NCBI GenBank assembly: GCA_903908785.1
Contig: CAIVTL010000278.1
Span: 1-33,806, forward strand
Source of the DNA: a candidate division WOR-3 bacterium
Lineage (GTDB): Bacteria > Hydrothermota > Tepidihabitantia > Tepidihabitantales > Tepidihabitantaceae
Direction of reading: 5' to 3'
Length of the DNA stretch: 33,806 nucleotides
Below, one piece after another: positions 5,581 through 33,806 of this stretch (positions are counted from its first letter, which is position 1; every line of letters starts with the position of its first letter). Made by a program: the position numbers and the translations under genes. A model generated the notes under the pieces. That model was not told the origin of the DNA and did no database searches. It saw nothing but the letters and a program-made list of their open reading frames with translations.

Positions 5581-5583
5581 GGC

Positions 5584-5617
5584 GGGAAATGGGACAAAAG
5601 GGACCAAAGAGACACAA
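5584..5617. repeat. STR block, 7-9 bp units (GGGAAAT GGGACAAAA GGGACCAAA GAGACACAA)
   Basis: Covers the start codon and the first 10 codons of menA. Confidence 0.75.
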
Positions 5618-6512
5618 GGCAGGCATCTGGCTGCGCGAGTTGCGCGCGCCGTTCTTCGTCGGCACGGTGATGCCCGCGGTCTTCGGCGCGGCCTACGCCC
5701 ACTACGCCGGCGCCGCGTTCAACTGGCCGCTGTTCGGCCTGACGATACTCGGCACCGTTCTCACCAACGCCGGCCTGAACATGACCAATGACTACTTCGA
5801 CCACAAGAGCGGCGATGACGACCTGACCCCGGCCACGCCGGTGTCCGGCGGGAGTAAGGTTATCCAGGAGGGGCTACTGAAGCCGCGGCAGGTACTGGCC
5901 GCCGGTATTGCCTGTCTCGCACTTGCCGCAGTAGTCGGCCTGTATCTCAATGCCGTGACCGGCGGGCGCGTGCTGCTGATTGTTGGCATCGTCGGGATGG
6001 TAATAGCGTGGTTCTATACCGCGCCGCCGCTGAAGTTCGGGCACCGCAGCGGGGTGGGCGAGGTGGTCTGCGTGCTCGGGTGCGGGCCGGTAATTGCGTT
6101 CGGGGCGTTCTTTGTGCAGGCGCGGGTATTTTCGTGGGCGGCGGTGTTTGCCAGTCTTCCCATCGGACTGTTGATGGGTCTGGTGCTCTTCATCAACGAG
6201 TTCCACGACGTACACGCGGACGGGGCCGTGGGCAAGCGGACTTTGGTGGTCGCGCTCGGCACCGGGGCCGCGTCTTTCGTGCTCGCTTTCACGCTGGCGG
6301 CCACCTATCTGCTGACAGTCGTGCTCGTGGTTCTGAATATCCTTGCGCCTGCGTCGTTGTTCGCACTGGTGACCCTGCCGCTGGCTGTATTCGCGGTAAT
6401 CCGGGCCCGGCGCTATCACGCCGAGTCGCCGAAACTGCTGCCGGCGAACTTCGCGGTCATCGGCACGCACCTGCTCTTCGGCGCGATTCTCACCCTGGTG
6501 GCGGCATTATGA
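5589..6512 (+). CDS. menA: UbiA-family prenyltransferase, MenA-like (1,4-dihydroxy-2-naphthoate polyprenyltransferase)
   Basis: 8-9 TM helices. NDYFDHKSGDD and NEFHDVHADGAVGKRTL are Asp-rich UbiA/MenA motifs. The first 10 codons (MGQKGPKRHK) lie inside a repeat block. Confidence 0.75.
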   Translation: MGQKGPKRHKAGIWLRELRAPFFVGTVMPAVFGAAYAHYAGAAFNWPLFGLTILGTVLTNAGLNMTNDYFDHKSGDDDLTPATPVSGGSKVIQEGLLKPRQVLAAGIACLALAAVVGLYLNAVTGGRVLLIVGIVGMVIAWFYTAPPLKFGHRSGVGEVVCVLGCGPVIAFGAFFVQARVFSWAAVFASLPIGLLMGLVLFINEFHDVHADGAVGKRTLVVALGTGAASFVLAFTLAATYLLTVVLVVLNILAPASLFALVTLPLAVFAVIRARRYHAESPKLLPANFAVIGTHLLFGAILTLVAAL

Positions 6513-16602: not shown

Positions 16603-17556
16603 ATGATGCGAGCGACTAACCACAGATGGACACTGATGCGCTGTCGGACAGGGGCCGCAGCGGCCAACACAGATGGTTCTCCCGGGGACATCTGCCCGGT
16701 TATCCGTGTTTATCGGTGGTTCACCCTGTCCGTTTCGTGTCTTCGTGGCGTCCATGTCGGTCTTTGGGTCGCGTTGGCAGCAGCCTGCACGTTCGGGGCC
16801 GAGGCGCGGGTGAAGGTGCGCGTGCGCGACGGCGACACCGGGCAGTGGCTCGCGAACGCCAAGGTTAAAGCCGGGGAGCGAGTCTTCTTTACCGACAGCC
16901 TCGGCGAGTGCATCATACCGGCACTCGCGGGCCAGCGTCTTCTCCTGACGACCTCGATTGGAAACGGCTATCCCGCCACCGACTCGGTGCTTGCCACTGT
17001 CCCGGACGCGAGGCTGGTGGTCAAGCTGTATGGCAGGCAGCCGCGCACCGCGATAGGATTCGTCAGGGACGGCAGCACCGGCAAGCCGCTGGCAAGGGCT
17101 TTGGTCAGAATCGAGGGCGCCGCGGCGACAGCAAAGGCCGACTCGGCGGGCATGTACGTCATTCCCTTTCCACCGGGCGACCGTGAACTCATTGCCGCGC
17201 TTCCGGGCTTTCGCGGATTCCCGAGGAACCTGTCGGTCAAGGCCGGGGACACGCTCGCGGTTGACCTGCCGCTGTACGATACTTCGCTCGCGGTCGGCGA
17301 GATTGCGGGTCGGGTGGAGGTGCAGGGCCTGGGCGCGGCCTGCGGGGCGAATGTAACGGTCGAAGGCACGCGGCTCGGCACCGCCTCGGACCAGAACGGC
17401 GACTACATCATCACCGGCGTGCCGGCCGGCTCATACCGCGTCGTGTTCTCCTACGCGGGGTGCAAGAAGGCGATGAAGGTCGTGAGCGTCATGGCATGGG
17501 AATCGCTAGTCCTGAATGTCCAGCTTGAGCAGCGCCTGCCGACGACCAAACGCTGA
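16603..17556 (+). CDS. Carboxypeptidase-regulatory-like (CarboxypepD_reg) repeat protein
   Basis: Three repeats of the type G.V.D..TG.PL..A.V...G....TD..G.Y.I..L..G.Y, for example GRVEVQG...VTVEGTRLGTASDQNGDYIITGVPAGSYRVVF. The N-terminal 40 codons, including all ATG starts, lie inside the 107-bp mosaic element, so the start is uncertain. Confidence 0.6.
   Translation: MMRATNHRWTLMRCRTGAAAANTDGSPGDICPVIRVYRWFTLSVSCLRGVHVGLWVALAAACTFGAEARVKVRVRDGDTGQWLANAKVKAGERVFFTDSLGECIIPALAGQRLLLTTSIGNGYPATDSVLATVPDARLVVKLYGRQPRTAIGFVRDGSTGKPLARALVRIEGAAATAKADSAGMYVIPFPPGDRELIAALPGFRGFPRNLSVKAGDTLAVDLPLYDTSLAVGEIAGRVEVQGLGAACGANVTVEGTRLGTASDQNGDYIITGVPAGSYRVVFSYAGCKKAMKVVSVMAWESLVLNVQLEQRLPTTKR
16617..16723. 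repeat. 107-bp mosaic palindromic element, copy 1
   Basis: Ends TAACCACAGAT...ATCGGTGGTTCA form an imperfect terminal inverted repeat. Internal palindromes CTGTCGGACAG and GGCCGCAGCGGCC. It shares all modules with 27903-28009. Confidence 0.85.
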
Positions 17557-18009: not shown

Positions 18010-19812
18010 TTACCGCTGCTGCCTTCCGGCCCAGCCGGACCGGGCGTTGTCGTGGTTGTAGGTTGGCCAGGCGGTGTTGGCCAAGTGCGCCTTGCCGATG
18101 GCCACGCAGTAGACGGAGAAGAAACCGGCCAGGTAGACGTTCCCGTCAGGCCCGACCAGCGGAGTCGTGTCGTCGTCCCCTTCGTCTCTGGGCGCGCGGC
18201 CGCGCGGCGTCTCCCCGACGGAGTCTTCGATGCTGAACGTCCAAAGAACGTCGCCATTCCACGAGAAACAGGTGAGCTCGTCGACCTCACTGCAATAGGT
18301 CAGCACCGTGCTGTCGGACAGAGCACACGGCGATGACATGCTGGCATTGCCATAGGGAATCCCTGCTGCCCAGACCCAGTGTCCGTCGGAATCATAGCAG
18401 TAAAGCCGTCCGTCGTCAGACTGGAAGTAGACACGGTCGTCATATCCGACCGTGACCCCGCCTTGGTACATCAAGACCGAGACGGACGCGCTCCACGCTA
18501 ACGTCCCATCCTGGTTGAAGCAGAGCAAGTGGCCGTCGTTGTCCGCGATTATCACGCGGCCGCGACTGTCTATGACAGGTGCGTAAAGCCAATCAGTACG
18601 TCCTATGTGAGTCGTGTCCTGCCATAGCACGGTGCCGTTGGTGTCCAACGCCGTGATGCCAGCCCGTGACGTGTAGCCCTTGGTGCAGCCAGCGTAGATG
18701 GTGCCGTTTGCACCGACAGCCACGCCGTATCCAGGTTCTGATGGCACGAGCGACAGTGGCACGCGCCATTGGATGTGCGCGGAATCGCCGCAGTCCTGCA
18801 ACTTGAGTACGAACGTCGTGTCCTGAGTGAAATAGGGCGTCGCCACGTACAGCGCACCATCGGGCCCGATCGTCGGTGTGCAATTACAGACTCGCAGTTT
18901 GATGCTCCAGACCCGGCTACCGGTCCGCGTGTCGAGACAGTAGATTTGACCGCTGTCGTCCGTCACTTGGTACAGTCTGCTGCCATCGATACCGAGGCTT
19001 GGTCCAAAGAAGATGGCTTGATTCGACTCCGAAGTCCATCGGGACATGCCGTTCGTCCAGATGCAGGCTGTACGGTCGTATGCACCCAAGTAGAGGACAC
19101 GCTCGCCGTCCAACTCGCCCATCGCCGGCGAGCCGGTGGAGCCGAGTTCCTCCGAATCCGGCGTGTACCACAACACGGCGACCGGGCTGACGTTGACGAA
19201 CTTCGCACCGGCGATTGGGTTAACCATGCTGCCCTTGTCCTTCAGTAGGACGTGGATGACATGGCGGCCGGTGGTTTGCCACTTCACGGAGTCTGTTACC
19301 GTGCTGCCGCTGGCGACGAACGGGGACCAACCCGAGGTCATGCTGTCGCCCCATATGAACTTCACGCTCACGCTGTCGCCGTCCGGGTCCATAACCGTAA
19401 CTGAAGGCCGATACCAACGGTCAACTGCCCAGCGCGCGAAGCCCGTGACCGTGTCCGCCAGTTGCGGCGGCGTTGAGGCGTGGAACAGGCATTCGTCCGA
19501 CCATTTGGAGACGCGGCCGGCTTCGTTGCGGGCCTTGACTCTGATGTGAAAGGTGCCGGTATCAGGGAAGGAACGAGGATAGCAGGCAGTGTCGCCGCTC
19601 GCGAAGTAGCCGGTCGTTGTCGAGTCGCCGTTGCCCCAGTCGAAGATGTACTGCACCTTCAGGCCGTTCGGGTCGGTCGCGGCGGTGAAGAAGCAGAGCG
19701 AGTCGTCGAGGATATCGGCCCAGGGCGCAGCCGGCGTCAGCGGAGCCTTCTTTGCACAGCCGACGAGAGCGACCAGCGCGCCGGTCAGAATCAGGAGCGC
19801 GTATTTGGACAC
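18010..19812 (-). CDS. PKD-like + PQQ/BamB-like beta-propeller lipoprotein (paralog 1)
   Basis: GGGGAGG RBS and a GTG start. Signal peptide with lipobox LVGC. Two PKD-like modules (YIFDWGNGDSTT, DPDGDSVSVKFIWGD). Repeated 'DG.L.W' propeller blades. C-terminus WPTYNHDNARSGWAGRQQR. Confidence 0.75.
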   Translation of the reverse strand: MSKYALLILTGALVALVGCAKKAPLTPAAPWADILDDSLCFFTAATDPNGLKVQYIFDWGNGDSTTTGYFASGDTACYPRSFPDTGTFHIRVKARNEAGRVSKWSDECLFHASTPPQLADTVTGFARWAVDRWYRPSVTVMDPDGDSVSVKFIWGDSMTSGWSPFVASGSTVTDSVKWQTTGRHVIHVLLKDKGSMVNPIAGAKFVNVSPVAVLWYTPDSEELGSTGSPAMGELDGERVLYLGAYDRTACIWTNGMSRWTSESNQAIFFGPSLGIDGSRLYQVTDDSGQIYCLDTRTGSRVWSIKLRVCNCTPTIGPDGALYVATPYFTQDTTFVLKLQDCGDSAHIQWRVPLSLVPSEPGYGVAVGANGTIYAGCTKGYTSRAGITALDTNGTVLWQDTTHIGRTDWLYAPVIDSRGRVIIADNDGHLLCFNQDGTLAWSASVSVLMYQGGVTVGYDDRVYFQSDDGRLYCYDSDGHWVWAAGIPYGNASMSSPCALSDSTVLTYCSEVDELTCFSWNGDVLWTFSIEDSVGETPRGRAPRDEGDDDTTPLVGPDGNVYLAGFFSVYCVAIGKAHLANTAWPTYNHDNARSGWAGRQQR

Positions 19813-19824
19813 GGTTTCCTCCCC

Positions 19825-21546
19825 TTAGTGTCTTCCCGCCCAGCCGGAGTGGGCATTGTCGTGGTTGTAAGTCGGCCAGGCGGTCGGGGCGAGACCAGAA
19901 TTGCCAATGGTCAGGCAGCAGAGCCCATAGTCGTAGCACAGGTAGACGTTCCCATCCGGAGCGACGGCCGGCGTCGGTGCTTCGTCGCCTTCGTCATGCC
20001 CGCCTTGCCTGCGGCCGGCAGTTTCCAGCGAATCCCAGATGGAGAATTCCCATGCGACCAGCCCATTCCAGCCGACGCAGGTTATGTAGTCTTCACTGTT
20101 GATGGACAGCACCGAGCTGTCTGCCAGCACGCAGAGGTTGTCCTCGTAGCCAGGGAAATTCTCCGTCTGGACATCCCAGACGAATCGGCCGTCGGAGTCG
20201 AGGCAGTACAGCGAATAGTCGGATTCGCTCTGGATGTAGATTCGGTCGTCATAGCCGACCGAGATGCCTCCACCGTACAGCAGCGTGGCTTCGGCTGCCC
20301 AGGCCAGCGAACCATCCGGGTTGATGCAGACCAGCGAGTCCATGGCGCTGGCGACAATCAGCCTCTCCCGGCTGTCGAGCGCCGGACAAGACCGGTAGCC
20401 GCCGCCTTTATTCATGTGGCTCGTATCCTGCCAGAACAGCGCCCCGGCAGTGTCCAACGCGAACGCCCCTGCATCGCGTCGGCCCTCGCCTCCGTAGTTG
20501 ACGCCGTAGACAGTGCCGGCCGCGCCCAGCACGACACTGGTGCAGGAACCGCGCCCTGCGTGGTATGTCCACTCCACGCGCGCCGAGTCTCCCAGGTCTC
20601 GAACTCGGGTCAGGTCGCCTTCCCGGGTGACATATACCTGGCCGAACGGGCCGAGGACGGGCGTACAGTCGCCCGGTTGCTGGTCCAGGCGCCAGATGAC
20701 TGCGCCGGTCCCAACATCGAAGCATGTCAGCCCGCGGTTGTCGTCCGCGACGTACAGGCGCGAGCCGTCGGCGCTGACCGACGGCGCAAAGCGCGCGGAC
20801 ATCGGGTCGAGCGGGAGTTTCCAGCGCGTGGTTCCGTCCGCATTGACGCACCAGACATAGTCGTAGTACACACCGCAGACCACGAGATGGCCGTCGGCTG
20901 TGCCGAGCACCGGCGAGCACTCGCTTTCGACCTCCGAGTTGGTCCACAGCACGGCCATCGGGCTTACGGTTACGGTCTTGCGGAGGTCCGGGCAGGCAAC
21001 CATCGAACCCCGGTCCTTGACCACGACCCTTACTGACTGTGGCCCGGTTACCGTCCACTTGCATGAGTCGGTGACGGTCGTACCGGTGGGTACAAAGGGG
21101 GTCCAGGTTGCGCCGGGCAGGTCGCCCCAGATGAACTTCACGCTCACACTGTCGCCGTCCGGGTCCGTGACCCTGACCGATGCGCGGTACCAGCGGTCAA
21201 CGGCCCAGCGCTCCGGGCCGGCGATACTGTCCTCGGCCGTCGGTGGTTGAGAGGAGCGAAACGACAACGGCGCCGACCAGGAGGAATAGAAGCCCTTGTC
21301 GTTGATGGCTATGGCCCTTACCGAGTGAATCCCGGTCACGGCGAACGCGTGCGTGCCGTAGATGGTTTCGCCGCTCGGGACGGCGGATGTCGTCGTCCTG
21401 CTCCCGTCACCCCAGTCGAACACGTATTTCACCTTTAGGCCGTTGGGGTCGGTCGTCGTGGTGAAGAAGCAGAGCGAATCGCCGTATACGTCGGCCCAGG
21501 GCTGAACCGGCGTGAGCGGATACCGCTTGGAACAGCCGGCGAACAC
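19825..21546 (-). CDS. PKD-like + beta-propeller lipoprotein (paralog 2); true start probably upstream at about 21585
   Basis: Same architecture as paralog 1, with stretches nearly identical at the nucleotide level (19355-19390 vs 21131-21166). The GTG-21546 model starts at MFAGC, in the middle of a lipobox. The signal peptide IKYLVPFTLALLAVFAGC is encoded upstream in frame, after AAGGAGG. Confidence 0.7.
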   Translation of the reverse strand: MFAGCSKRYPLTPVQPWADVYGDSLCFFTTTTDPNGLKVKYVFDWGDGSRTTTSAVPSGETIYGTHAFAVTGIHSVRAIAINDKGFYSSWSAPLSFRSSQPPTAEDSIAGPERWAVDRWYRASVRVTDPDGDSVSVKFIWGDLPGATWTPFVPTGTTVTDSCKWTVTGPQSVRVVVKDRGSMVACPDLRKTVTVSPMAVLWTNSEVESECSPVLGTADGHLVVCGVYYDYVWCVNADGTTRWKLPLDPMSARFAPSVSADGSRLYVADDNRGLTCFDVGTGAVIWRLDQQPGDCTPVLGPFGQVYVTREGDLTRVRDLGDSARVEWTYHAGRGSCTSVVLGAAGTVYGVNYGGEGRRDAGAFALDTAGALFWQDTSHMNKGGGYRSCPALDSRERLIVASAMDSLVCINPDGSLAWAAEATLLYGGGISVGYDDRIYIQSESDYSLYCLDSDGRFVWDVQTENFPGYEDNLCVLADSSVLSINSEDYITCVGWNGLVAWEFSIWDSLETAGRRQGGHDEGDEAPTPAVAPDGNVYLCYDYGLCCLTIGNSGLAPTAWPTYNHDNAHSGWAGRH

Positions 21547-21623
21547 GGCGAGCAGGGCGAGCGTGAACGGAACCAGATACTTTATCGCGGCCTCCTTGGT
21601 GACCAGGGTATCATCTATGCAAG

Positions 21624-21652
21624 GTTCTAACTGAAACAGGGGAAGAAGTCAA
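21624..21652 (-). promoter_or_regulatory. Weak sigma70-like promoter on the minus strand (TTGACT-17-TAGAAC) for paralog 2/1
   Basis: Located in the divergent intergenic region 21547-21744. The -10 box lacks the final T. Confidence 0.25.
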
Positions 21653-21668
21653 GGGAGACAGCCGCCGC

Positions 21669-21697
21669 TTGACATCCGTGCCGGGCTGCCGCATTAT
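21669..21697 (+). promoter_or_regulatory. Sigma70-like promoter (TTGACA-17-CATTAT) for paralogs 3-5
   Basis: Consensus -35 box, about 47 nt upstream of ATG-21745. Confidence 0.45.
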
Positions 21698-21744
21698 GTT
21701 CTAGCGGCCAGGGGTATTCTCCGGCCGCAGATTGCGAGGCGAAC

Positions 21745-23304
21745 ATGAAGTCACGATTCGTTGTCCTCATCGTTCTGGCAGCGGCTTTGCTGCTCTCCAC
21801 CGGCGCGGGCTGCGGCAGGAAGCAGTATGCGCCGGTAGTGGACTCGGCCGTGGTCGCGCCGTATTACCCCGACTTTGACAGCGCAAGGCTTACCGTGTGC
21901 GCGCACGACCCGGACGGCGACAGCATTCGGCTGCGCGTCGAGTGGGGTGACAACAGCGACACACTCACGGCTCTCTACGCCAGTCCGTGCCGCGCCGAAT
22001 TGAAGCACGGGTATTCGGATGCAAGTCGGGCCACGGTGATTGTTGCGGCCCTCGACATGAACAACGTCTCCATTCCGGAAACGACGACCGTGCCGGTCGA
22101 GCCGTTTGGCATAGTACAGTGGTGGTGGAAGAGCACTGACCCCAACAACGGGGACGTGGGGTTCATCACGTCGCCGGTCGTAGCCAGTGACGGCATCGTC
22201 GAGCGCGTGTATGCCGGCTGTGATGACTACAAGTTCTACTCCAGCCGGACCAGTGACCGCAGGGGCGAGAAGAGCGCAACCACCAAAGAGCCCGAGTGTC
22301 TATTCAACGGCCATCCCGGCCTCTGCGCCGCCACCGGCCATATCATCGTCGGCAGCGAAGAAGGTGAGCTTTATGCCCTGGAAATCGACGGACTGGCTAA
22401 GGCATGGCAGTGGCCGGATAGCGCCTCGGAGCACGGGACCGGCCTCCAGTGGGGTGCGCCGGCGTTCAACGGTAACAGGATCTACATCGGCCACGAAGGC
22501 CCCCAGGGCTACGACAGCCTGCTCCTGTTTGAGGATGCCGGTGCGCAGGGTAACCGGGTTGCCGCCTATAGCGTCCACGCCGTGGTGATTGACGCGCCGG
22601 TAATCGACGCCGCCGGCAACGTCATCTTCGGCAACGACTCCGGCTACCTCATCAAGATTGACGCCAACCTCAATTCGCCCATCTGGCGCTCCAAACTGCT
22701 GCCTAACGGCGAGGTCCACGGCCCGATTATCGGCGGCGACGGGACCATCTATTGCGCCTCCGATTACTTCCATCTCTTTGCGATTGACCCGGCGACCGGC
22801 ACCGTGAAATCGGGCTGGCCACTGACGCTGAACGGCGACGTGTTTCGACCGGTACTTGGCCAGTCGGCCATCTTCGCCGGCAGCGGCTTCGGCGAGGTTT
22901 ATTCCATCAATCCGGCAACCGGCGGCATCAACTGGACGGACCTGCTCAGTCCGTACCACGGGTTCAGCACTGCCCCAGTCGTCGCGGCCAATGGCTACGT
23001 GTACTTCCAGGACGACGCCGATGTGCTCTACTGTGTGAACCAGGCCGACGGCACGCTCATCTGGTCCTGCAACTGCCCGCTCTACCTCCCACGCGCCGGC
23101 GACTCACACCGACCGAGGAGGACGGGGCTGACCGACTACCGCCCGAACCTGTCAATCTGCGCCAACGGTAACATCATCGTTATAGGCGCTGACGCCTGCT
23201 ACTGCGTCGCCGGCTATCCCGAAGGTCCGCTCGACCCGCTCGCGTCCTGGCCCAAGTGGCAGCACGACTTGTACAACACCGGCAACGTGGACGGAGGAAG
23301 GTAG
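21745..23304 (+). CDS. PKD-like + beta-propeller lipoprotein (paralog 3)
   Basis: Signal peptide ending in ...STGAGC. Has DPDGDSIRLRVEWGDNSD. Propeller repeats (ADGTLIWS etc.). C-terminus WPKWQHDLYNTGNVDGGR. Confidence 0.75.
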   Translation: MKSRFVVLIVLAAALLLSTGAGCGRKQYAPVVDSAVVAPYYPDFDSARLTVCAHDPDGDSIRLRVEWGDNSDTLTALYASPCRAELKHGYSDASRATVIVAALDMNNVSIPETTTVPVEPFGIVQWWWKSTDPNNGDVGFITSPVVASDGIVERVYAGCDDYKFYSSRTSDRRGEKSATTKEPECLFNGHPGLCAATGHIIVGSEEGELYALEIDGLAKAWQWPDSASEHGTGLQWGAPAFNGNRIYIGHEGPQGYDSLLLFEDAGAQGNRVAAYSVHAVVIDAPVIDAAGNVIFGNDSGYLIKIDANLNSPIWRSKLLPNGEVHGPIIGGDGTIYCASDYFHLFAIDPATGTVKSGWPLTLNGDVFRPVLGQSAIFAGSGFGEVYSINPATGGINWTDLLSPYHGFSTAPVVAANGYVYFQDDADVLYCVNQADGTLIWSCNCPLYLPRAGDSHRPRRTGLTDYRPNLSICANGNIIVIGADACYCVAGYPEGPLDPLASWPKWQHDLYNTGNVDGGR

Positions 23305-23310
23305 GCGAAG

Positions 23311-25050
23311 GTGAAATTACGGCTGCGTTCCTTGTCAGTCCTTGCCGCAGCCTTGGCGCTCCTGTGCGCCGGCTGCGACGAGCACGCGCGTCTCGGCGTT
23401 TGGATAGTCTCCGGGCCGACCCAGGTCGCCCGCGGCGCCATGGCGACCTACGTCGTAAGAAGCGGGTATAGTGGATTCTTCTCGTCTGGTGGAACACTCC
23501 GCTACCGTGTGGAATGGGGCGACAGCATGACCGCGACCAGTGACCCTCGCTCAATTGGTGACACGGTCCTGTTCACTCACGCGTGGCGCAAGTCAGGGAC
23601 ATACACAGTGACGGCTTTGGCCTACGGCATCCCTGATTCGCGTTCGTACCCGCGGTACGTTGTCGTGTCGGATTCCAACGACCCGGTGATTGACTCGGCA
23701 CAGTTCTACTCCGACTGGCGGCCGGCAGAACTTGTCGCCGTCGCGCACGCCCCGGCCGGTGAGAGCCTCAGGCTTGCCGTAGCGTGGGGCGACGGCCAGA
23801 ACGAAACGACCGGGTTCCTGCCCAGCCCCTGCCGACTCAGCGCAATTCACCGCTATGCAGACGCCGCGCACGTGCAGGTCGTGGTCAGGGCCCTGGACGA
23901 GTCCGGCAGGATGTCATTTCCGGACACTCTCTCGGGCTCGGTCTCGACGTATGGGGAGGTCACAAGCTTCAACCTCGGCGACTACTCCGGCTCGCCGGTC
24001 ATCGCTCTCAACGGCTCCGATGAAAACGTCTACCTCATCGGTTCAGACGGTTTCTACGGCCTGCGCCCCGGAGGAGCTAAATACATCTGTCTTGGAGCTT
24101 TCGTTGGCCATCCTTCGTTCTCCAGTCTGACCGCACACGTCTACATCGGCTCGGACGATGGCCGGCTGCATGCTTTTACCCCGACGCTCGGGCTTGCCTG
24201 GAGTTACCCGTCCGACGAATCGATTACCGGCCCGGAGTGGGGGGCGGCCACGGTCAATGGCAGCGCGCTGTATGTGCCGTGCGCGAACGAGAGCATCTAC
24301 TATCTCATTGACAATGGCGCGTCGGTCATCCGTGGGGCTGTGTTCGGCGCTCAGGCTGCGCTGGTTGACGCCCCGGTGATTGACGCCGGTGGCAACGTCT
24401 ACTTTGGGACTGACTCAGGTTACCTGTACAAACTGACCAGCAGCCTTTTCTTCCTCTGGCGCGCACGCCTGCAGGCGGGCGGCGTTATTCACGGCCCGGT
24501 GCTCGACGCCGACGGCACGGTCTACTGTTCATCAGACTCGAACCGGCTCTTTGCCGTGAACCCGGCCGACGGGTCGGTGAAATGGACTGCGGCGCTGGAT
24601 GGTGCCGGCCCGCGACCTGTCGTCGGTTCCGACGGCGTCTATGTCGGCACTTCGACCGGCCATTTCTACCGGCTCGACAAGACCACCGGCGCGATAGCCT
24701 GGGAGAAGCAATTCGAGGGTGCCGAGTTTGCCTCCTGTCCGATACTCGTCGCCTATAGCGTCTACGCGGTCACGACGAGCGACGTTCTCTACTCTCTCTA
24801 CCGGCAGGATGGCTCCACTAGCTGGGTCTGCAATTGCCCGAAGTACCTGCCCAGACAGGGTCGCTACAGGCCACTGCATCTGACCGACTACTACCCAAGC
24901 CCGACCGTGAACTCGTCCGGCGAGGTGTACGTGGTCGGCTCAGAAGCCCTCTACAAGCTCAACACCTACGGCCAACTCGACGCCGCGTCCCCCTGGCCCA
25001 AGTGGCAGCACGACCGCTATAACACCGGCCACGTCGGCGGAGGAAGGTAG
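23311..25050 (+). CDS. PKD-like + beta-propeller lipoprotein (paralog 4)
   Basis: The GTG start lies 6 nt after the upstream stop. Signal peptide LLCAGC. YRVEWGDSMT and LRLAVAWGDGQNETT modules. Propeller repeats. C-terminus WPKWQHDRYNTGHVGGGR. Confidence 0.75.
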   Translation: MKLRLRSLSVLAAALALLCAGCDEHARLGVWIVSGPTQVARGAMATYVVRSGYSGFFSSGGTLRYRVEWGDSMTATSDPRSIGDTVLFTHAWRKSGTYTVTALAYGIPDSRSYPRYVVVSDSNDPVIDSAQFYSDWRPAELVAVAHAPAGESLRLAVAWGDGQNETTGFLPSPCRLSAIHRYADAAHVQVVVRALDESGRMSFPDTLSGSVSTYGEVTSFNLGDYSGSPVIALNGSDENVYLIGSDGFYGLRPGGAKYICLGAFVGHPSFSSLTAHVYIGSDDGRLHAFTPTLGLAWSYPSDESITGPEWGAATVNGSALYVPCANESIYYLIDNGASVIRGAVFGAQAALVDAPVIDAGGNVYFGTDSGYLYKLTSSLFFLWRARLQAGGVIHGPVLDADGTVYCSSDSNRLFAVNPADGSVKWTAALDGAGPRPVVGSDGVYVGTSTGHFYRLDKTTGAIAWEKQFEGAEFASCPILVAYSVYAVTTSDVLYSLYRQDGSTSWVCNCPKYLPRQGRYRPLHLTDYYPSPTVNSSGEVYVVGSEALYKLNTYGQLDAASPWPKWQHDRYNTGHVGGGR

Positions 25051-26907
25051 ATGAACATGAAGTCACGACTTGCGGCTCTCACCGCAGCGGCCGCGACGCT
25101 TCTGATTATCGCAGGCGCAAGTTGCCAACGGACGATTAGGCCACCTGTGTTCGTGTCAGTCCCGGAGACTGTCTTTGCCGGTGAAGTCGCGCATCTGCGC
25201 CTCGTGACGTACGTGCTCGGCTACCAGAGCACCGGCTACGTCATGGACTGGGGCGATACCGTTGAGACTGACTCCGGCCGGTTCCCGCTCGGCGACACAG
25301 GGACCGTCTCCCACGTGTGGTCTGCGCCCGGCGTCAAGCAGGTGCGGGCGCGGGCATTCCCTTTCGCCGACCCGACGCTGCTGACGGACTGGTCTGAACG
25401 TGAAACCGTAGTCGTCGTTCCGGGCGGTGAAGGTGCGCCGGTGATAGACACTGTCTTCGTCGACCCGCCGGTCGCGGTAAGAGGCGTGGAAGGGTCCCTA
25501 ACCGTCGTGGCTCACGACCCAGGCGGCGACAGCATCAGGATAATCCTTGACTGGGGCGACGGCACCGACACGACGACTAACTTCTTTCCCAGCCCATGCA
25601 GCGTCGTGGTCGGTCACACATTTGGACAGGTTGAGACCGCCAGGGTTCTCATTATCGCCCAAGACTGGAAGGGTGCGTCGTCATTGCCCGAAACCGTCTC
25701 TATCCCGGTCGGCACTGCCGGCGGCGTCAACTGGTGGTGGCAGAGCAGCGACCCCGAGAACCCGGGCGAGCCATGCACGACTTCGCCGCTCATTGTCACC
25801 GTCGGCGGCGACGAACGCCTGTTCTTTAGCGACGAGGGCGACGGCAAGTTCTACTCCATCCGTGCTAGCGGCTTTGGGGGTGAGAAGTCAGCGACCACTC
25901 GCTGGCCGGGAGGCACTTTCTCCGGCCATCCGGCGTTCTGCGAGGCGACCCAGCACATCATCATCGGCAGCGACGAAGGCGAACTCTACGCCCTGAAGGT
26001 CGACGGGCTTGGCAAGGACTGGCATTGGCCGGACAATCCTGAATCGCTACTGACTGGTCTCGAATGGGGCGCACCGGCAATCAAGGGCAACCGGCTCTAC
26101 GTCCCGCATGAAGACGACAGCCTGTTTCTATTCGAGGACGTCGGCCTACAGGGCAACCGCGTTGCCGCTTACCCGGTCAACGCCTCGGTGGTTGATGCGC
26201 CGGTGATTGACGCACAGGGCAACGTCTACTTCGGCACGGACTCGGGCTACCTGTACAAGATGGGCCCGGAACTGGACACCGTGTACTGGCGTACGCGCCT
26301 GCTGGCCAACGGCGAGATTCACGGCCCGGTCATCGGCGGTGACGGGGCCGTCTATTGCGCGTCCGACCAGTCCCGCGTCTACGCGATTGACCCAGTGAGC
26401 GGAACCCCGCTATGGACCGCAACACTGGACGGCGACGTATCACGCTTGGCCTTGGGCCAGTCGGCCATCTTCGTCGGCAGCGGCTCCGGCCACGTCTATT
26501 CCATAGACCCGGCAACCGGTGAAAAGAACTGGGAGAAGCAGCTCACCCTGACCGCAGGGTTCAGTACAACGCCCATCGTCGCGGCTAACGGCTATGTGTA
26601 CTTTCAGGATGACGACGACGTGCTATACTGCCTGAACCAGGCCGACGGCACCATCATCTGGTACTGCAAGTGCACGGACTACCTGCCGCGCGCAGGTGGC
26701 GGCGGTCCACACCGGCCGAGAAAGACACAGTTGTTCGACTACGCGCCGAACCCGACGATTCTGGCCAACGGCAACATCATTGTCTGCGGTGACGATGCAC
26801 TCTACTGTGTGGCCGGCTATCCCGAAGGTCCACTCGATGGTGCCGCCCCTTGGCCCAAGTGGCAGCATGACGTGTACAACACCGGATACGTGGGCGGAGG
26901 AAGGTAG
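25051..26907 (+). CDS. PKD-like + beta-propeller lipoprotein (paralog 5)
   Basis: The ATG abuts the upstream TAG. Signal peptide ...IIAGASC. YVMDWGDTVE and IRIILDWGDGTDTTT modules. It is the closest paralog of 21745-23304. C-terminus WPKWQHDVYNTGYVGGGR. Confidence 0.75.
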   Translation: MNMKSRLAALTAAAATLLIIAGASCQRTIRPPVFVSVPETVFAGEVAHLRLVTYVLGYQSTGYVMDWGDTVETDSGRFPLGDTGTVSHVWSAPGVKQVRARAFPFADPTLLTDWSERETVVVVPGGEGAPVIDTVFVDPPVAVRGVEGSLTVVAHDPGGDSIRIILDWGDGTDTTTNFFPSPCSVVVGHTFGQVETARVLIIAQDWKGASSLPETVSIPVGTAGGVNWWWQSSDPENPGEPCTTSPLIVTVGGDERLFFSDEGDGKFYSIRASGFGGEKSATTRWPGGTFSGHPAFCEATQHIIIGSDEGELYALKVDGLGKDWHWPDNPESLLTGLEWGAPAIKGNRLYVPHEDDSLFLFEDVGLQGNRVAAYPVNASVVDAPVIDAQGNVYFGTDSGYLYKMGPELDTVYWRTRLLANGEIHGPVIGGDGAVYCASDQSRVYAIDPVSGTPLWTATLDGDVSRLALGQSAIFVGSGSGHVYSIDPATGEKNWEKQLTLTAGFSTTPIVAANGYVYFQDDDDVLYCLNQADGTIIWYCKCTDYLPRAGGGGPHRPRKTQLFDYAPNPTILANGNIIVCGDDALYCVAGYPEGPLDGAAPWPKWQHDVYNTGYVGGGR

Positions 26908-26982
26908 CGAGTAACGGAACCTGAGGGACTGCTTCCGCCTCACGGCGGGTATCGGAAGCTGCGGAGCTTCCAGGCCGCGCAG

Positions 26983-27483
26983 TTGGTCTACGACGCCACG
27001 GTGCTGTTCTGTGACAGATTCGTGGACAAGCGCTCACGCACGCATGACCAGATGGTGCAGGCGGCGCGAAGCGGCGTGCAGAATATCGCGGAGGGCAGCA
27101 TGGCTTCGGCGACGTCGAAGAGGACAGAGCTGAAGCTGACCGGCGTTGCGCGGGCCAGCCTGGAGGAGTTGCTCCTGGACTTCGAGGATTTCCTGCGCCA
27201 GCGCGGGCTCAAGCTCTGGAGCAAAGATGACCCACGCGCTTTGGCAGTGAGGCGGCGCTATCAGTCAGACCGGTCGGACTTGTCGGACAGAGAGGCGCAA
27301 GCGCAAGCGAGGAAGCGCAAGCAGAGGCCAAGAATCCGATGCTTGAGCTTGGGCTTGAGCTTGGGTAAGCAGCCCCCGCTGCTGCACCGGCAGATGCAGC
27401 AGTTGGAGCAGGCGTTCCTCGCCGAGGGCGGGTTCACCGAGCGGCTGTACCGCGAGCGACGGGCGCGTCGGCAGAACCAGTAG
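26983..27483 (+). CDS. Four-helix-bundle protein with 'suffix' domain (formerly '23S rRNA intervening-sequence protein' family); N-terminus lacks a canonical start
   Basis: VYDATVLFCDRFV...MVQAARSGVQNIAEGS and the C-terminal QQLEQAFLAEGGFTERLYRERRARR are family-like. Conserved-looking residues (PPHGGYRKLRSFQAAQL) continue upstream to the TAG at 26905-26907 with no ATG/GTG/TTG before TTG-26983. Three repeat blocks are inserted between the two domains. Confidence 0.55.
   Translation: MVYDATVLFCDRFVDKRSRTHDQMVQAARSGVQNIAEGSMASATSKRTELKLTGVARASLEELLLDFEDFLRQRGLKLWSKDDPRALAVRRRYQSDRSDLSDREAQAQARKRKQRPRIRCLSLGLSLGKQPPLLHRQMQQLEQAFLAEGGFTERLYRERRARRQNQ
27262..27365. repeat. Three abutting STR blocks: 3 x 9 bp (CAGTCAGAC CGGTCGGAC TTGTCGGAC), GCGCAA-type hexamers, and 2 x 12 bp (GCTTGAGCTTGG)
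   Basis: All lie in frame inside the four-helix-bundle gene and encode QSDRSDLSDREAQAQARKRKQRPRIRCLSLGLSLG. Confidence 0.85.
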
Positions 27484-27497
27484 CCACGCGCGCTTGG

Positions 27498-27525
27498 TTG
27501 AAAGCCGCCGCGTGGCGGCTATTCT
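27498..27525 (+). promoter_or_regulatory. Sigma70-like promoter (TTGAAA-16-TATTCT), 6 nt upstream of GTG-27532; its spacer is also a terminator-like hairpin
   Basis: AGCCGCC-GCGT-GGCGGCT (27503-27520) is followed by ATTCTTTT, which reads as a terminator for the four-helix-bundle gene. The same bases provide the -35/-10 boxes for a leaderless PP-loop ATPase mRNA. Confidence 0.4.
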
Positions 27526-27531
27526 TTTGCC

Positions 27532-28704
27532 GTGACTGAACAACATAAGCCGGTCGCCGTTGCCCTGCTTTCCGGCGGGCTGGATTCGACGCTGGCGGCA
27601 AAGGTGATTCTGGAGCAGGGTATCACGGTTATCGGTATCAACTTCGCCGGGGCATATTGCCCGCGGCCGCTTGCGGGCAAGAGCCGCGCGGAGAAGGCGG
27701 CGGAGAAGCTGGGCATCGAACTCGTGACCCTGCCGATTGACGCGGAGTTCATCGCGATGGTAAAGAACCCGCGACACGGCCGGGGCAGGAACATGAACCC
27801 GTGCATTGACTGCCATACGTTGATGATACGCAAGGCGTGGGCATGGGGACAGACCGAGCCGGAATCCAAAACCCAAAACCCAAAACCTAAGAGCCAGAGA
27901 GATGAACCACCGATGCACTGTCGGACAGGGGCCTCGGCGGCCAACACGGATAACCGGGCAGATGTCTCCGAGAAAACTATCTGTGTTCATCAGTGTCCAT
28001 CTGTGGTTAGCTGGTATGACCGAGCGGATTTCGTCATCACCGGCGAGGTGCTGGGGCAGCGGCCGATGTCGCAGAACCGGAACGCGCTTAACACAGTGGC
28101 CAGCTGGTCCGGCGTGGGAGAGCGGCTGCTTCGGCCGATGTCGGCGAAACTGCTCAACCCAACTGCGCCTGAGCAGGAGGGCCTGGTTGACCGCGAACGG
28201 TTGCTGAACATCGAGGGCAGGCAGCGGAATCGCCAGATGGCGCTGGCCGAGAAGTATGGCATCAAGGACTACCCGTCGCCGGCCGGCGGGTGTCTCTTGA
28301 CCGAGAAGGTCTATTCGAAGCGGCTGGCCGAGGCGTTCGACCACGGTGAGGATTCGCTTGAGATAGTCGAACTGCTTTCACTGGGCAGGCATTTCCGCCT
28401 GCCTTCCGGCGCGCGGTTGGTCGTGGGGCGGGACGAGAGGGAGAACGACGAACTGCTGCGGCGTAAACCGGCGGGCGCGGTCGTGATTGACGCGGGCGAT
28501 TTGCCGGGACCAGTGGGAATACTCGCGAAGGGATCAAGGGATCAAGGGATCGAGGGATCGAGTGACGAAGCGTTGGCCGCGAGGATTTGCGCGCGGTTCA
28601 GCGACAAGCGGAAAGAGAAACTCGCGCGGGTCGTGATTGCGGGCGAGGCGGTTGACGTCGAGCCCGCGAGTGAAGAGGAATCGGCCCGGCTACTGATTGC
28701 GTGA
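27532..28704 (+). CDS. PP-loop (adenine-nucleotide alpha-hydrolase) ATPase, MnmA/ThiI-like thiolation-type enzyme
   Basis: VALLSGGLDST PP-loop close to the N-terminus. NPCIDCH, FVITGEVLGQRPMSQ and YPSPAGGCLLTE are also present. An in-frame foreign segment of about 50 aa (repeat block plus the 107-bp mosaic element, 27865-28009) and an octamer repeat (28530-28561) interrupt the protein. Confidence 0.6.
   Translation: MTEQHKPVAVALLSGGLDSTLAAKVILEQGITVIGINFAGAYCPRPLAGKSRAEKAAEKLGIELVTLPIDAEFIAMVKNPRHGRGRNMNPCIDCHTLMIRKAWAWGQTEPESKTQNPKPKSQRDEPPMHCRTGASAANTDNRADVSEKTICVHQCPSVVSWYDRADFVITGEVLGQRPMSQNRNALNTVASWSGVGERLLRPMSAKLLNPTAPEQEGLVDRERLLNIEGRQRNRQMALAEKYGIKDYPSPAGGCLLTEKVYSKRLAEAFDHGEDSLEIVELLSLGRHFRLPSGARLVVGRDERENDELLRRKPAGAVVIDAGDLPGPVGILAKGSRDQGIEGSSDEALAARICARFSDKRKEKLARVVIAGEAVDVEPASEEESARLLIA
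27865..27899. repeat. STR block, 5 x 7 bp (TCCAAAA CCCAAAA CCCAAAA CCTAAGA GCCAGAG)
   Basis: In frame in the PP-loop ATPase gene (SKTQNPKPKSQR). It directly abuts mosaic element copy 2. Confidence 0.85.
27903..28009. repeat. 107-bp mosaic palindromic element, copy 2 (inverted, with one module transposed)
   Basis: The reverse complement aligns to copy 1 end to end. The exception is the 27-bp module CGCTGTCGGACAGGGGCCGCAGCGGCC, which sits on the other side of the 45-bp AACAC...GTGTT module and is flipped. Confidence 0.85.
28530..28561. repeat. STR block, 4 x 8 bp (GGGATCAA x2, GGGATCGA x2)
   Basis: In frame in the PP-loop ATPase gene, encoding GSRDQGIEGS. Confidence 0.9.
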
Positions 28705-29238: not shown

Positions 29239-32200
29239 GTGCGAATAAAAGAGCTCCAGCTCATCGGTTTCAAGTCTTTCCAGGACAAAGCGACGCTGCG
29301 TTTCTCGCCGGGCCTGAACGCGGTCATCGGGCCGAACGGCTGCGGCAAGACCAACATCCTCGACGCATTGCGCTGGGTGCTGGGCGAGCAGTCGTTCACC
29401 ATGCTCCGCTGCGCGAAGAACGAGGACCTGATATTCGGCGGCACGGCCACGGTAGCGCCGGTGAACTACGCCGAGGTGAAGTTGGTGATGGATGACGTGG
29501 AACAGGGGTCAGGGGTCAGGGGTCAGGGTCCAGGGATGACAGAGGTGGAGATACGGCGCAGGTACTTCCGGTCGGGCGAGAGCGAGTACTACCTGAACAA
29601 GCAGCCGTGCCGGTTGCGTGACATCCAGGAGGTCTTTTTCTCGGCCGGGGCCGGCACCAAGGCCTATTCGATATTCGACCTGCGCCAGATGCGCGAGATT
29701 ATCTCCGGCAACATCCGGAAGATGTTCGAGGAGGCGGCGAGCCTGGCGAAGTACAACGACGCCAAGGCCGACTGCCGGCGCAAGCTCGAACTGACCGCGG
29801 GCGACCTGATGCGCCTCGATGACATCATCGCTGAGCGCGAGCGGTTCGTGCGCAGCCTGCAGCGGCAGGCCGGCCGGTTGCGGGCGTTCGACAAGCTGAA
29901 GACCGAAGAGAAGGGACTGCGGCTGCTGGAATTGAAGGCCGACTACGAGGCGATGCAGCGGGACCTCGGGCGGGCTCAAGCCGACACCGAGGCGCTGGAG
30001 CAGGCCGAGGCCGCGCGGGTGGCGGACATCCGGCGGCTGGATGAGGAGCTTAAGATTCAGCGCGGCCGGGTGCGCGACCTGCAGGCGCTGAAGGATGAGC
30101 TGGCCGCCAAGGTGCAGGCCCAGCGGCAGGTGTTGTCCGACCTCGAAGGTCGGGACCTGCTGGCGCGGCAGCGGATAGAGTTTCTTGCCAGCGCGACCGG
30201 CCAGGCCGAGACCGAGCGCGCCGCGCTGGCGGAGAGCGTGCTCCAGATGGAGCAGACGTTTGAGCAGACTCTTGCTCGACTGGCCGAGGCGAACGAGCGC
30301 CAGGCGCGGGCGCAGGAGCAGCTCGAACGCCAGCGGGCGCTGGTGCAGTCGCTCGAGGAGCAACTGTACGGACTGCGCAGCCACGAGACCGCGCTTCGGC
30401 AGCAGGTCCAGGAGCGGCAGGAACAGGAGCAGGGCGGCCGGCAGGAACTGGCAAGGCTCGATGCGACGATTGACAACCAGCGCGAGACCGTGGAGCGGCT
30501 GGCCGGAGAGGCGAGCGCGGTCCGAGAACGAAGAACGAGGAACGAAGAACAAAGAACGGAAATCGGGCTGAAGGTCGCGGCGGCGGCCGCGGCCATCGAG
30601 ACGGGCCGGAAACGACTCGAAGCATTGCGCGCCGAGTTCGTCCAGGCCCGGGACGACCGGAACCGGCTGCGCGCGGATGATGCCAGGCTGCGCGAGGAGC
30701 GGGCCGGGCTGGAAACCGATTTGGCGGTGCTGCGCGCCGGGATTGCGAGCGAGCAGGCGGAGGTGAGCCGAGCCGCGCTGGCCGAGGCGTTGCGCGGCGA
30801 GGCGGGCGCGTTTCTCGACGTGACGTCCGGGTGGGAGCGGGCGTGCGAGGCAGCGCTGTACGCGGTGGTTGATTTTCTGGTCGCAGACCTGCCCGGGCCG
30901 GACAAGCTCGGGGAACTGGCCGAGAAGCGCCCGGACCTGCGGTTCGGCTTCCTAGTGGAAGAAAGGGTTCAAGGGTTCAGGGGTTCAGGGGTCCAGGCGG
31001 AGGAGCCCGGAGACCTGCCCTCAGACCCGGCCGTCATTGGACCACTGTCGGGGTTTGTGAAGGTGAAGGCGGAGGCGCCGGCCGCGCTGCACGAGCTGGT
31101 CAATGGGTGCCTCGTGGCCGCGAGCGCGGGCGAGCTGGGCCGGCTGGCGCAGCAGTTCCCGGGCTGGTCGTTTGTGACGCAGGACGGCGTGTGCCGGTTC
31201 TCGGACGGGCGGCTGGTAATTGAAGGGCGCGAGAGCGGGCGGCTGAGCGCGGGGCGGGCGATTCACGACAAGAGCGAGCGGCTCGGCGCGGTCGATGCGG
31301 AACTGGTCGGGATTGCGACGAGCGAGGCTGCGTTGGCCCGGCGCCGCGAGGAGCTGGAAAAGGAAATCGGGCAGGTTGAGTTCGAGGTCGGCGAGACCGG
31401 GCGGGAGAAGGCTTCGCTCGATGCGTCGCTGGAGCTGATTGCCGCGACCGGCGAAGATATGGGCCGAGACGTGGAACGGCTCAGGGCCGCGCAGTATGCG
31501 GCCGCGGCCCAGAAGCGGGCGGTCGAGGAGAAGCGGGCCGCGCTCGCCGCAGCGGGCGGCGAGCTTGAGACCCGGACCCAGGCCGGCACCGGCGCGCTCA
31601 AGCAGGCCGAGGAGGAAGCACGCAAACTCGAAGAGCAGGTCAAGGCCGGGCTGGATTTGTCGTCGCAGGCGCTGGCCGAGCTCTCCGACGCGCGGCAGGC
31701 CGGATCCCGGCTTGAGGCCGAGAATGCGTTCGCCAAGCGCCAGATTGACGACGGCCGGCGCCGGCTGCACGAGTACGCGGCGGCAGCGGAGCGCAACCGC
31801 GATGAGAGCGCGGGGCTGGAGAAGGAAATCGGCGACCGGGCCGCGGAGATTGAGCAGGCGCGTTCCATCCTGACCGACCTTGACGCGGAAACCGGGAAGC
31901 TGCACATCGGCGAACTGGCACGGGCCGAGGAGGCGCTGGAGGCCAACCTCGCCGAACTGCGCCAGTCGCAGGAGCGAAACCAGAACGTCTTGATGGAGCA
32001 ACGGCTGAAGCTGTACGAGCTGAACCAGCGGTTTGCCGCCATCAGCGAAGAGGCGAAGTCGAGCTATGGAACCGACATCGCCGCGTTCCAGCCCGAGGCG
32101 GCGGAGGGCGCCGAGGAACGGCTGGCACAAGTGCGGCAGCGGCTCGAAGCGCTCGGGCAGGTGAACCCGCTGGCCGCGCAGGAGTACGCGCAGGAGAAGT

Positions 32201-33666: not shown

Positions 33667-33778
33667 GGAGTAGGTAGTAGGTAGGAGATAGTAGGTAGGA
33701 CGAGGAGTGTCCCTCCTACCTCCCACCTCCTACCTTCTACCTTCTACCTCCTACCTCCTACCTCCTACCTCCTACCTG
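33666..33778. repeat. Inverted pair of GGTAGGA / TCCTACC heptamer arrays (long imperfect hairpin) after ftsY
   Basis: Left arm GAGGAGTAGGTAGTAGGTAGGAGATAGTAGGTAGGACGAGGAG. Right arm CTCCTACCTCCCACCTCCTACCTTCTACC(TCCTACC)n. Probable terminator-like structure. Confidence 0.85.
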
Positions 33779-33806
33779 CTAACTCTCGTCGGTTTTCTCC
33801 GGCGGC

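Follow-up and report, generated by a model that had tools for sequence, protein, structure and literature searches.

The stretch of DNA considered here, which we call the window, is a contig of 33,806 nucleotides (nt) from a candidate division WOR-3 bacterium (CAIVTL010000278.1). It is ordinary chromosomal DNA, with genes for Rnf/Nqr, prenyl synthases, ApbE, an ECF sigma factor, PQQ propeller paralogs, SMC and FtsY, and no transposase was found in the whole 33,806 nt. This work focuses on one of its genes, which encodes a PP-loop ATPase with a C-terminal NFACT-R_2 domain, and on a 123-bp repeat element that lies inside that gene. The protein has 390 residues where typical homologs have 336, and its closest named homologs are from metagenome-assembled genomes of candidate division WOR-3. 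The N-terminal PP-loop domain carries the SGGLDS motif and a CxxC motif plus a third cysteine. Profile searches give this region weak matches to tRNA_Me_trans, ThiI and QueC, and the nearest solved relatives are MnmA, ThiI, TtuA and LarE, with MnmA the best. The gene is not MnmA itself, however; the protein scores 30 bits where the cut-off of the MnmA NCBIfam equivalog is 284, in a match confined to the N-terminal PP-loop domain. Because the score falls so far below that cut-off, the product is taken as a sulfurtransferase-like, thiolation-type PP-loop enzyme other than MnmA. An earlier note, made from the letters of this stretch, had given it a PP-loop thiolation-type label that the domain matches and solved relatives bear out, and the peptide quoted there is the exact translation of the open reading frame (ORF) at 27532..28704. 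In the insert-bearing lineages the gene is under purifying selection, since the differences between orthologs are concentrated at third codon positions (38/106 and 51/159, with 6-19 at first and second positions).

The extra residues sit between AWAWGQ and ADFVITGEV in alignments of 30 and of 103 homologs, just where the earlier note had put them, after NPCIDCH...AWAWG. When 27901-28023 is deleted in silico the protein reads ...KSQR/ADF (a slash marks a junction), in register with the ...KTQRADF of homologs that have only the adjoining array of heptamers; the 123 bp encode 41 residues. Close relatives come in three states: no insert (GQTRGADF), the heptamer array alone (GQAEPEAKSQEPKAKTQRADF), and the array plus the element. 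We find no homologous domain at this position in unrelated taxa, an objection the earlier note had raised against itself. Among the matches listed, the homologs from other phyla are all distant (at most 48% identity), and their spacing from CxxCH to TGEVLGQRP is exactly 34 residues in 54 of 80 and longer than 34 in none of the 80 (the other 26 did not fit the search pattern); here it is 88.

Independent assemblies carry the PP-loop insertion as well (L001, L002, L020, L105 and P0002; related loci have L numbers and proteins P numbers). Many copies of the repeat lie at contig ends, so it does disturb assembly, and since repeats break assemblies our copy number is an underestimate. That the insert is itself a repeat-induced chimera of assembly we find hardly credible, because the same junctions recur in at least six independent assemblies (ENA, JGI, NCBI), with diverged flanks and with the frame kept each time.

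The frame is kept because of the way the insert is built. The heptamer array, the repeat unit and its nested module B are 39, 96 and 27 nt long, each a multiple of three, and the gene reads the element in one of its two frames that lack stops, which leaves the ORF open; as the earlier note said, no stop interrupts the gene frame across the insertion. The same note had the opposite strand open too, and a minus-strand ORF at 27265..28344 does cover the insert. Its further idea that copies avoid stops in all frames fails: across copies, just 2 of the 6 frames can be relied on to lack stops, roughly the number expected by chance over 36 codons, and the element termini contain TAA or TGA in other frames. 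An intron-like or RNase III-type intervening sequence, a translational bypass or an intein would each remove the segment before the protein is made. The termini can pair, which would bring the junctions together, and strong conservation is confined to the in-gene copies, as in splicing-dependent elements. We nevertheless consider removal very improbable. No Rfam intron or other family matches, the 41 residues have no intein blocks or junction residues and are far too few for an intein, and every in-gene copy is in frame and stop-free, which would be needless if the segment were removed.

An AlphaFold model made with 103 sequences has a mean pLDDT of 85.8. Residues 118-159 fall below 50; they form a loop that follows helix 91-113, whose start is at the CxxC motif, and precedes strand 167-169. 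Around the insert the fold is kept at a predicted pLDDT above 90. The model thus predicts a site compatible with the fold of the protein. Transcription and translation would carry the insert along with the enzyme and produce a disordered surface loop of about 54 residues. This loop would join the helix to the strand that follows, at the helix end that lies away from the catalytic cysteine motif, and the enzyme would tolerate it there, as is described for Rickettsia palindromic elements.

Table 1. Coordinates in the window of the host gene, the two element copies and their parts.
Feature	Position	Strand	Basis or remark
Host gene, PP-loop ATPase + C-terminal NFACT-R_2	27532..28704	+	Pfam, NCBIfam, homologs
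Degenerate heptamer array GCCGGAA TCCAAAA CCCAAAA CCCAAAA CCTAAGA GCCAGAG...	27858..27900	+	TRF; homologs
Inserted unit, 123 bp = 96 bp + 27-bp module B, reads DEPPMHCRTGASAANTDNRADVSEKTICVHQCPSVVSWYDR	27901..28023	+	removal restores array-only register
Copy 2 core, 108 bp	27903-28010	+	conserved termini TGAACC...GGTTAG
Left arm TGAACCACCGATG	27903..27915	+	with start of centre = two 10-nt units
Module B CACTGTCGGACAGGGGCCTCGGCGGCC: palindromes CTGTC n GACAG and GGCC nnnnn GGCC	27916..27942	+	absent from orthologous copies in L002 and L020
45-bp centre, inverted ends AACACGGAT...ATCTGTGTT, family-specific core	27943..27987	+	91% complementary to 16666-16710
Right arm CATCAGTGTCCATCTGTGGTTAG	27988..28010	+	100% complementary to 16616-16638
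13-nt tail CTGGTATGACCGA of inserted unit	28011..28023	+	same position as TCGGTCGCGTCGT in other copies
Copy 1 core, 108 bp; B at 16639-16665 on other arm	16616..16723	-	exact repeats, inverted repeats
Module E, reverse complement ..CCGACATGGACGCCACGAAGACACGAAACGGACAGGG	16724..16768	-	common to intergenic copies (alignment of seven)
Tail module F of copy 1	16603-16615	-	alignment of seven intergenic copies

The element is not peculiar to this gene. A metagenome scan with the core 24-mer gave 17 loci, and these, the two window copies and proteins P0121-P0124 represent at least 12 distinct genomic sites. An M20 amidohydrolase contains it in frame, between GNGTGRT and IALRSDMDAL; other copies lie in open frame at the 5' ends of carB-like, ppk1-like and CarboxypepD_reg genes; directly before the GTG start of an apgM-like gene; and at several more intergenic sites. 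Three different coding sequences contain the element or module B. The M20 empty site is seen in about 75 homologs and in L102 DNA (GGAAGGACG/ATTGCGCTC), and the filled alleles are larger by 96 nt (L103) or 123 nt (L104, L006/7), the same sizes as the PP-loop insert. Both enzymes read the element in the same frame, DEPPM...NTDNRADV...ICVHQCPSVV.

We believe that 27901-28023 is probably a copy of a dispersed, non-coding, dyad-symmetric miniature repeat of one WOR-3-like lineage, inserted in frame. Some enzyme may mobilise the repeat in trans, or recombination may do so. Among called proteins its peptide is rare: a six-frame peptide search found it in P0121-P0124, and a HMMER scan of 1.84 billion representatives returned P0121, P0123 and P0124 only. 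The family-specific 24-mer had no match in species-representative genomes.

The arm motif reaches further, in the form ATCnGTGTT-CATCnGTGTC-CATCnGTGGTT, to 22 unrelated IMG/VR contigs (L107-L128). In about half of these an inverted left arm lies 42-265 nt upstream, and several matches adjoin heptamer arrays; neither the family-specific core nor module B was found in them. The earlier note mentioned peptides of the type NTD...ICVH.C.SVV as spurious hypothetical proteins in other genomes, and this is only partly borne out, by P0121-P0124 and by the arm motif, which encodes ICVH.CPSVV, in the 22 contigs. The motif often forms hairpins there, with varied centres (L116 has about five units per side), and spurious ORFs in the IMG/VR matches give ICVHLCPSVV, FICVHLW and NTDEHG-type peptides.

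The repeat unit measures 96 bp and consists of inverted arrays of a 10-nt motif around a 27-nt centre, with a 13-nt tail. One side has two units of the motif, CATCnGTGkT, and the other has three; the central n of the motif varies without compensation. The three units (ATCTGTGTTC ATCAGTGTCC ATCTGTGGTT) are formed in tandem by the right arm and the end of the centre, and TRF reports period 10 at 27979-28005. Terminal inverted repeats are present (TGAACCACCGATG and CATCTGTGGTTAG). RNAalifold folds 15 distinct copies into a consensus hairpin of 24 pairs; for the in-gene copies, 99% of cells are paired. Most of the variation across the family lies in columns that are unpaired, with 51 variant cells in 24 columns, compared with 11 in 33; this comparison is partly circular. 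Rfam has no match to the element at the gathering cut-off nor at E of 10 or less, a promoter and terminator scan of the element found none, and BLAST against plasmids and phages gave nothing meaningful.

The earlier note saw a mosaic here, and we can sharpen this: the 27-bp module was inserted separately. The orthologous copies in L002 (P0004) and L020 lack B and read CCACCGATG/AACACGGAT; the window, L001 and L105 have exactly 27 extra nt at that point and no duplication. The M20 gene has B in L104, L006 and P0126 and is without it in P0127/L103, and the copy orthologous to copy 1 in L009 has no B, so B is polymorphic at three orthologous sites (the PP-loop gene, M20 and the copy-1 site). B also stands alone, beside heptamer repeats, inside an alpha/beta-hydrolase coding sequence (CDS) at L003 13213-13239, which is the same place as L004 7738-7764, and it occurs at four other non-homologous sites. 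L013 has it within an octamer array, and both L011 and L013 have it past the tail module. Throughout, the stems CTGTC/GACAG and GGCC/GGCC are fixed and the loops vary. These sequences show B to be an independent nested insertion without target duplication. In the hydrolase gene of L003/L004, B and the AAGTCAGAAGCCAGAAG-type heptamers that follow it are in frame (..RTVGQGPPRPSQKPEARCQKSEV..).

The two window copies have opposite orientations, as had been claimed, and exact matches of 21-24 nt confirm it. The 24-mer AACACGGATAACCGGGCAGATGTC occurs exactly twice, at 16687-16710 (-) and 27943-27966 (+), as does the 21-mer AACCACAGATGGACACTGATG, at 16618-16638 (+) and 27988-28008 (-); 0 of 100 shuffles matched these repeats. 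A 16-mer of module B is exact at 16641-16656 (+) and 27918-27933 (+). The earlier observation that B keeps its plus-strand orientation while all else is inverted, and lies on opposite sides of the 45-bp centre, is therefore right. The copies are also equal in length, as stated then, but the conserved termini make that length 108 bp rather than 107. In both copies B is preceded by 5'-GATG and followed by AACAC-3'. Since the element is dyad-symmetric, the target 5'-GATG^AACAC-3' is present on each strand, at opposite ends of the centre, and two independent insertions of B explain the apparent flip without an inversion. Separate insertions at the same short target, not inversion, are what the flip records.

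The neighbours of copy 1, which falls within ORF 16603..17556, are a methyltransferase gene on one side and a CarboxypepD_reg gene on the other; the syntenic locus L003 is without the copy. The intergenic copies have common extra modules on both sides, and B, E and F occur in varying combinations. Copy 1 and module E are in the reading frame of the downstream CarboxypepD_reg gene (16603-16768; L009). Since the stretch from the element to the signal-peptide core has no in-frame start, translation may begin at the arm ATG (16636) and add a leader of about 57 residues; the L003 ortholog starts MRSTLLSV right after the methyltransferase stop. At the carB-like (L005) and ppk1-like (L010/L014) genes a GTG in the element end (CTGTGGTTAG) is a plausible start codon.

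The element in the PP-loop gene abuts the heptamer array, which the earlier note had described exactly: TRF gives a perfect core of CCAAAAC in 3.1 copies with 100% match at 27866-27887. The homologs P0006-P0010 and L003 have the array without the element, and P0011, P0015 and L106 have neither. Between lineages the array diverges by 15-20%, like the flanks. The array is older than the element next to it. We see a 96-bp unit that was invaded by the separate double-palindrome module B and that lies at the 3' end of an older heptamer microsatellite.

Arrays of this kind are common in the window. TRF finds about 20 with periods of 7, 8 or 14 nt, and short arrays of 7-10 nt stand at nearly all gene boundaries, for example CCTCCTA in 10.6 copies at 33712-33785. 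The SMC gene has two in frame, a heptamer array CAGGGGT (29503-29535) and an octamer array GGGTTCAG (30965-30997), which coincide with indels of 5 and 8 residues relative to the L001 ortholog. The PP-loop enzyme has a second hypervariable loop, where four copies of the octamer AAGGGATC at 28528-28559 encode KGSRDQGIEGSS; the peptides of homologs in this loop are different and repeat-derived (SDSRLQIADCRL, PSSCLGDLVVD, and a 40-residue insert in P0060). A third loop, between window residues PTAPEQ and EGLVDRE (alignment columns 289-323), holds a repeat-type insert in P0035, P0051, P0055 and P0060. This insert, ..HKDTKTQR..SCLCALVVDSE.., and the CACGAAAGACACGAAAC module flanking the element's intergenic copies are related.

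Several observations weigh against the idea of a simple dispersed repeat inserted in frame. We infer that the insert is translated. The window and about 250 kb of related loci yielded neither a partner transposase nor an autonomous insertion sequence (IS) that shares the element's ends, and there is no target-site duplication at the M20 site (GGAAGGACG/ATTGCG against ...ACA[GATGAACC...GTCGT]ATCGCG). No compensatory changes occur in the 15 distinct copies analysed with RNAalifold nor in the in-gene copies, and single-strand folding beats shuffles by a modest margin only (z of -1.6 for RNA and -2.7 for DNA). The in-gene element is 92-98% identical between lineages where the flanking CDS is 79-87% identical (binomial P from 1e-6 to 4e-3), which is too conserved for a neutral passenger, and at third positions 3 of 36 differ in the element as against 89 of 265 in the flanking CDS. 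Finally, the presence of the element does not track the relatedness of the host genes, and the filled L105 (P0005) and the empty L106 (P0015) have flanks that are 94% identical around a 162-nt indel with tight borders.

The slow change is seen in each of four pairs of in-gene copies. The pairs come from loci found via the host protein and hence are not biased by the search pattern. The window element differs from L001 at 5 of 108 positions (flanks 19.5%), from L105 at 4 of 108 (flanks 15.5%) and from L002 at 2 of 81 (flanks 14.2%), and in M20 the L103 and L104 elements differ at 8 of 96 (flanks 20.8%); binomial P for the four pairs runs from 8e-6 to 8e-4. Concerted evolution among copies is not the cause, since orthologous copies are closer to each other, with locus-specific variants in common, than the two paralogs in the window genome are (94% identical).

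It is possible, if somewhat doubtful, that the in-gene copies are kept by selection on the nucleotide sequence or hairpin, as an mRNA or DNA structure or as an array of CATCnGTG sites bound by a protein. Such selection could coexist with a selfish origin. It would fit the conservation of element and third positions alike next to a heptamer array that diverges as the flanks do, and the closeness of orthologs, which removes concerted evolution as a rival. Substitutions also avoid paired columns: of the 13 columns that vary among seven in-gene copies, only 3 are paired where about 7.7 are expected, and 2 of those 3 keep the pair, in line with the family-wide pattern above. However, the lack of compensatory double changes and the weak folding scores tell against it, the structure is derived from the same sequences, which makes the argument partly circular, the intergenic copy 1 is not conserved relative to L009 (83%), and recent lateral spread would likewise give high identity.

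Such spread deserves about the same tentative credence. A young cassette may have passed between related lineages, by homologous recombination of the filled allele or by homing-like, site-specific re-insertion at the same target, and this would account for both the high identity and the patchy distribution. Proteins that bear the element are not mutual nearest relatives. The nearest relatives of P0003 are P0028 and P0026-29, all without the element, and P0005, which is filled, is 95.7% identical to P0015, which has none. L106 has the ancestral GQTRGADF beside its near-identical flanks and is not a deletion derivative, and for M20 the filled L103 has its closest relative in L102, which is empty. 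Against this stands the heptamer array that goes with the element in every case in the PP-loop gene; at its divergence of about 15-20%, a recent joint transfer needs unusually fast mutation of the array. No endonuclease or recombinase was identified, and no co-converted flank could be demonstrated because the 60 nt adjoining the element are conserved in all alleles. Selection at the nucleotide level, lateral spread by recombination or homing-like re-insertion, or both could explain the slow change and the patchiness.

We think it unlikely that the insert has been recruited as a useful protein segment, for example a Cys/His loop (ICVHQCP) that binds a metal or a partner. The same frame is used in both enzymes and the peptide is nearly invariant among orthologs, but that frame is simply the open one for the orientation. 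The conservation of synonymous positions is unexplained by selection on the protein, the segment is modelled as disordered, and close relatives do without it.

Several candidate partners of the dispersed repeat were considered and rejected. The gene next to the host gene (26908-27483) encodes a four-helix bundle like the 23S rRNA intervening sequence protein; L106 has this gene but no cassette, and neither the other loci with the element nor the viral loci have it. The Y1_Tnp gene of L001 (5376-6041), the only one seen, is flanked by AAATGGGGACGCTACCCATTT-type repeats, and we rejected this RAYT as mobiliser because that palindrome differs from B. Ends like those of integron attC sites or of IS3 were set aside too, as the consensus cores do not fit, judged from sequence.

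The surroundings of these candidates hold features of their own. The four-helix-bundle gene has a 4helix_suffix domain and amounts to a clean insertion, about 555 nt long, that separates the PQQ-propeller and PP-loop genes; L002, L020 and L106 have it, the syntenic place in L003 does not, and no repeats related to the element flank it. Its linker to the suffix domain (27264-27365) is made of short tandem repeats (GTCAGACCGGTCGGACTTGTCGGAC, GCGCAA, GCTTGA) and is wholly unlike the L002 ortholog. In L001 the stretch 5300-6070 holds the Y1_Tnp (IS200/RAYT-like) gene between inverted AAATAGGGACGCTACCCATTTT and AAAATGGGTAGCGTCCCCATTTAT repeats, a different REP-like family in the same lineage. Upstream in the window, 18010-26907 is occupied by five tandem paralogous PKD/PQQ beta-propeller genes (two minus, three plus), the source of most long direct and inverted repeats in the window.

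The closest known parallel is the Rickettsia palindromic elements (RPE; Ogata 2000 Science, 2002 Genome Res, both cited in PMC10969869). Like RPE, the element is a palindromic repeat, dispersed and about 100-150 bp long, that lies in frame in unrelated housekeeping genes, leaves the ORFs intact, sits at places that fit the fold and gives a conserved element-encoded peptide. What we find here matches these marks of an RPE: multi-copy dispersal, palindromic pairing ends, in-frame insertion with the ORF kept, and a site predicted to be compatible with the fold. The likeness is one of kind. The element belongs to an unrelated, WOR-3-like phylum; its arms are an iterated 10-nt motif, it holds a nested 27-bp module and abuts a heptamer array, and it is polymorphic among close relatives and more conserved than its host gene. 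Common descent with the RPE families is unlikely because of the difference in phylum. By analogy, then, the element seems to act like an RPE and to form a separate family in another phylum.

Other systems share some of these features. REP and BIME sequences are likewise mosaics of short palindromic modules whose order and orientation vary, and module B resembles a REP in its 27 nt, its fixed stems and variable loops and its lack of a target duplication; however, REPs are extragenic where these modules lie in coding DNA, and no RAYT flanked by B was found in the window and related loci. Transposable elements of the miniature inverted-repeat kind (MITEs) with intragenic in-frame copies (ERIC, Correia, QMITE and the cyanobacterial ones) are also small, have terminal inverted repeats, code for no transposase and occasionally make in-frame fusions. 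Unlike them, the element has made no target-site duplication at M20, the only place with a clean empty site, and the window and related loci gave no parent IS with matching ends. The modular composition recalls the pneumococcus BOX elements (BOX A-B-C). The heptamer arrays recall the STRR heptanucleotide repeats that are reportedly dispersed as short 7-nt tandem arrays in the genomes of heterocystous cyanobacteria (Mazel et al. 1990). The arrays here differ in phylum and unit sequence, several of them are in frame within genes, and different arrays occupy one same loop in different lineages.

It is tempting to go further. The in-gene copies may not be inert, and a hairpin cassette of about 100 nt would then either be kept inside coding sequence by selection at the nucleotide level or, as a 'homing' miniature repeat that encodes no enzyme, spread between related lineages into exactly one codon of one gene. 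We advance this as a speculation that we hold to be rather improbable. If it is true, the cassette, together with the nested 27-bp module and the arrays of 7-10 nt, would be an undescribed route of protein-loop remodelling in uncultivated bacteria. There is a practical side as well, since such inserts inflate and fragment metagenome assemblies and seed spurious hypothetical proteins of the NTD...ICVH.CPSVV type. What this case adds is a single loop with three nested repeat layers, alleles that are cleanly filled or empty, and an element slower to change than its host gene. In-frame 'protein-coding palindromes' have been held to be a peculiarity of Rickettsia. A case in a free-living, uncultivated phylum suggests that small repeats may reshape protein loops more widely.

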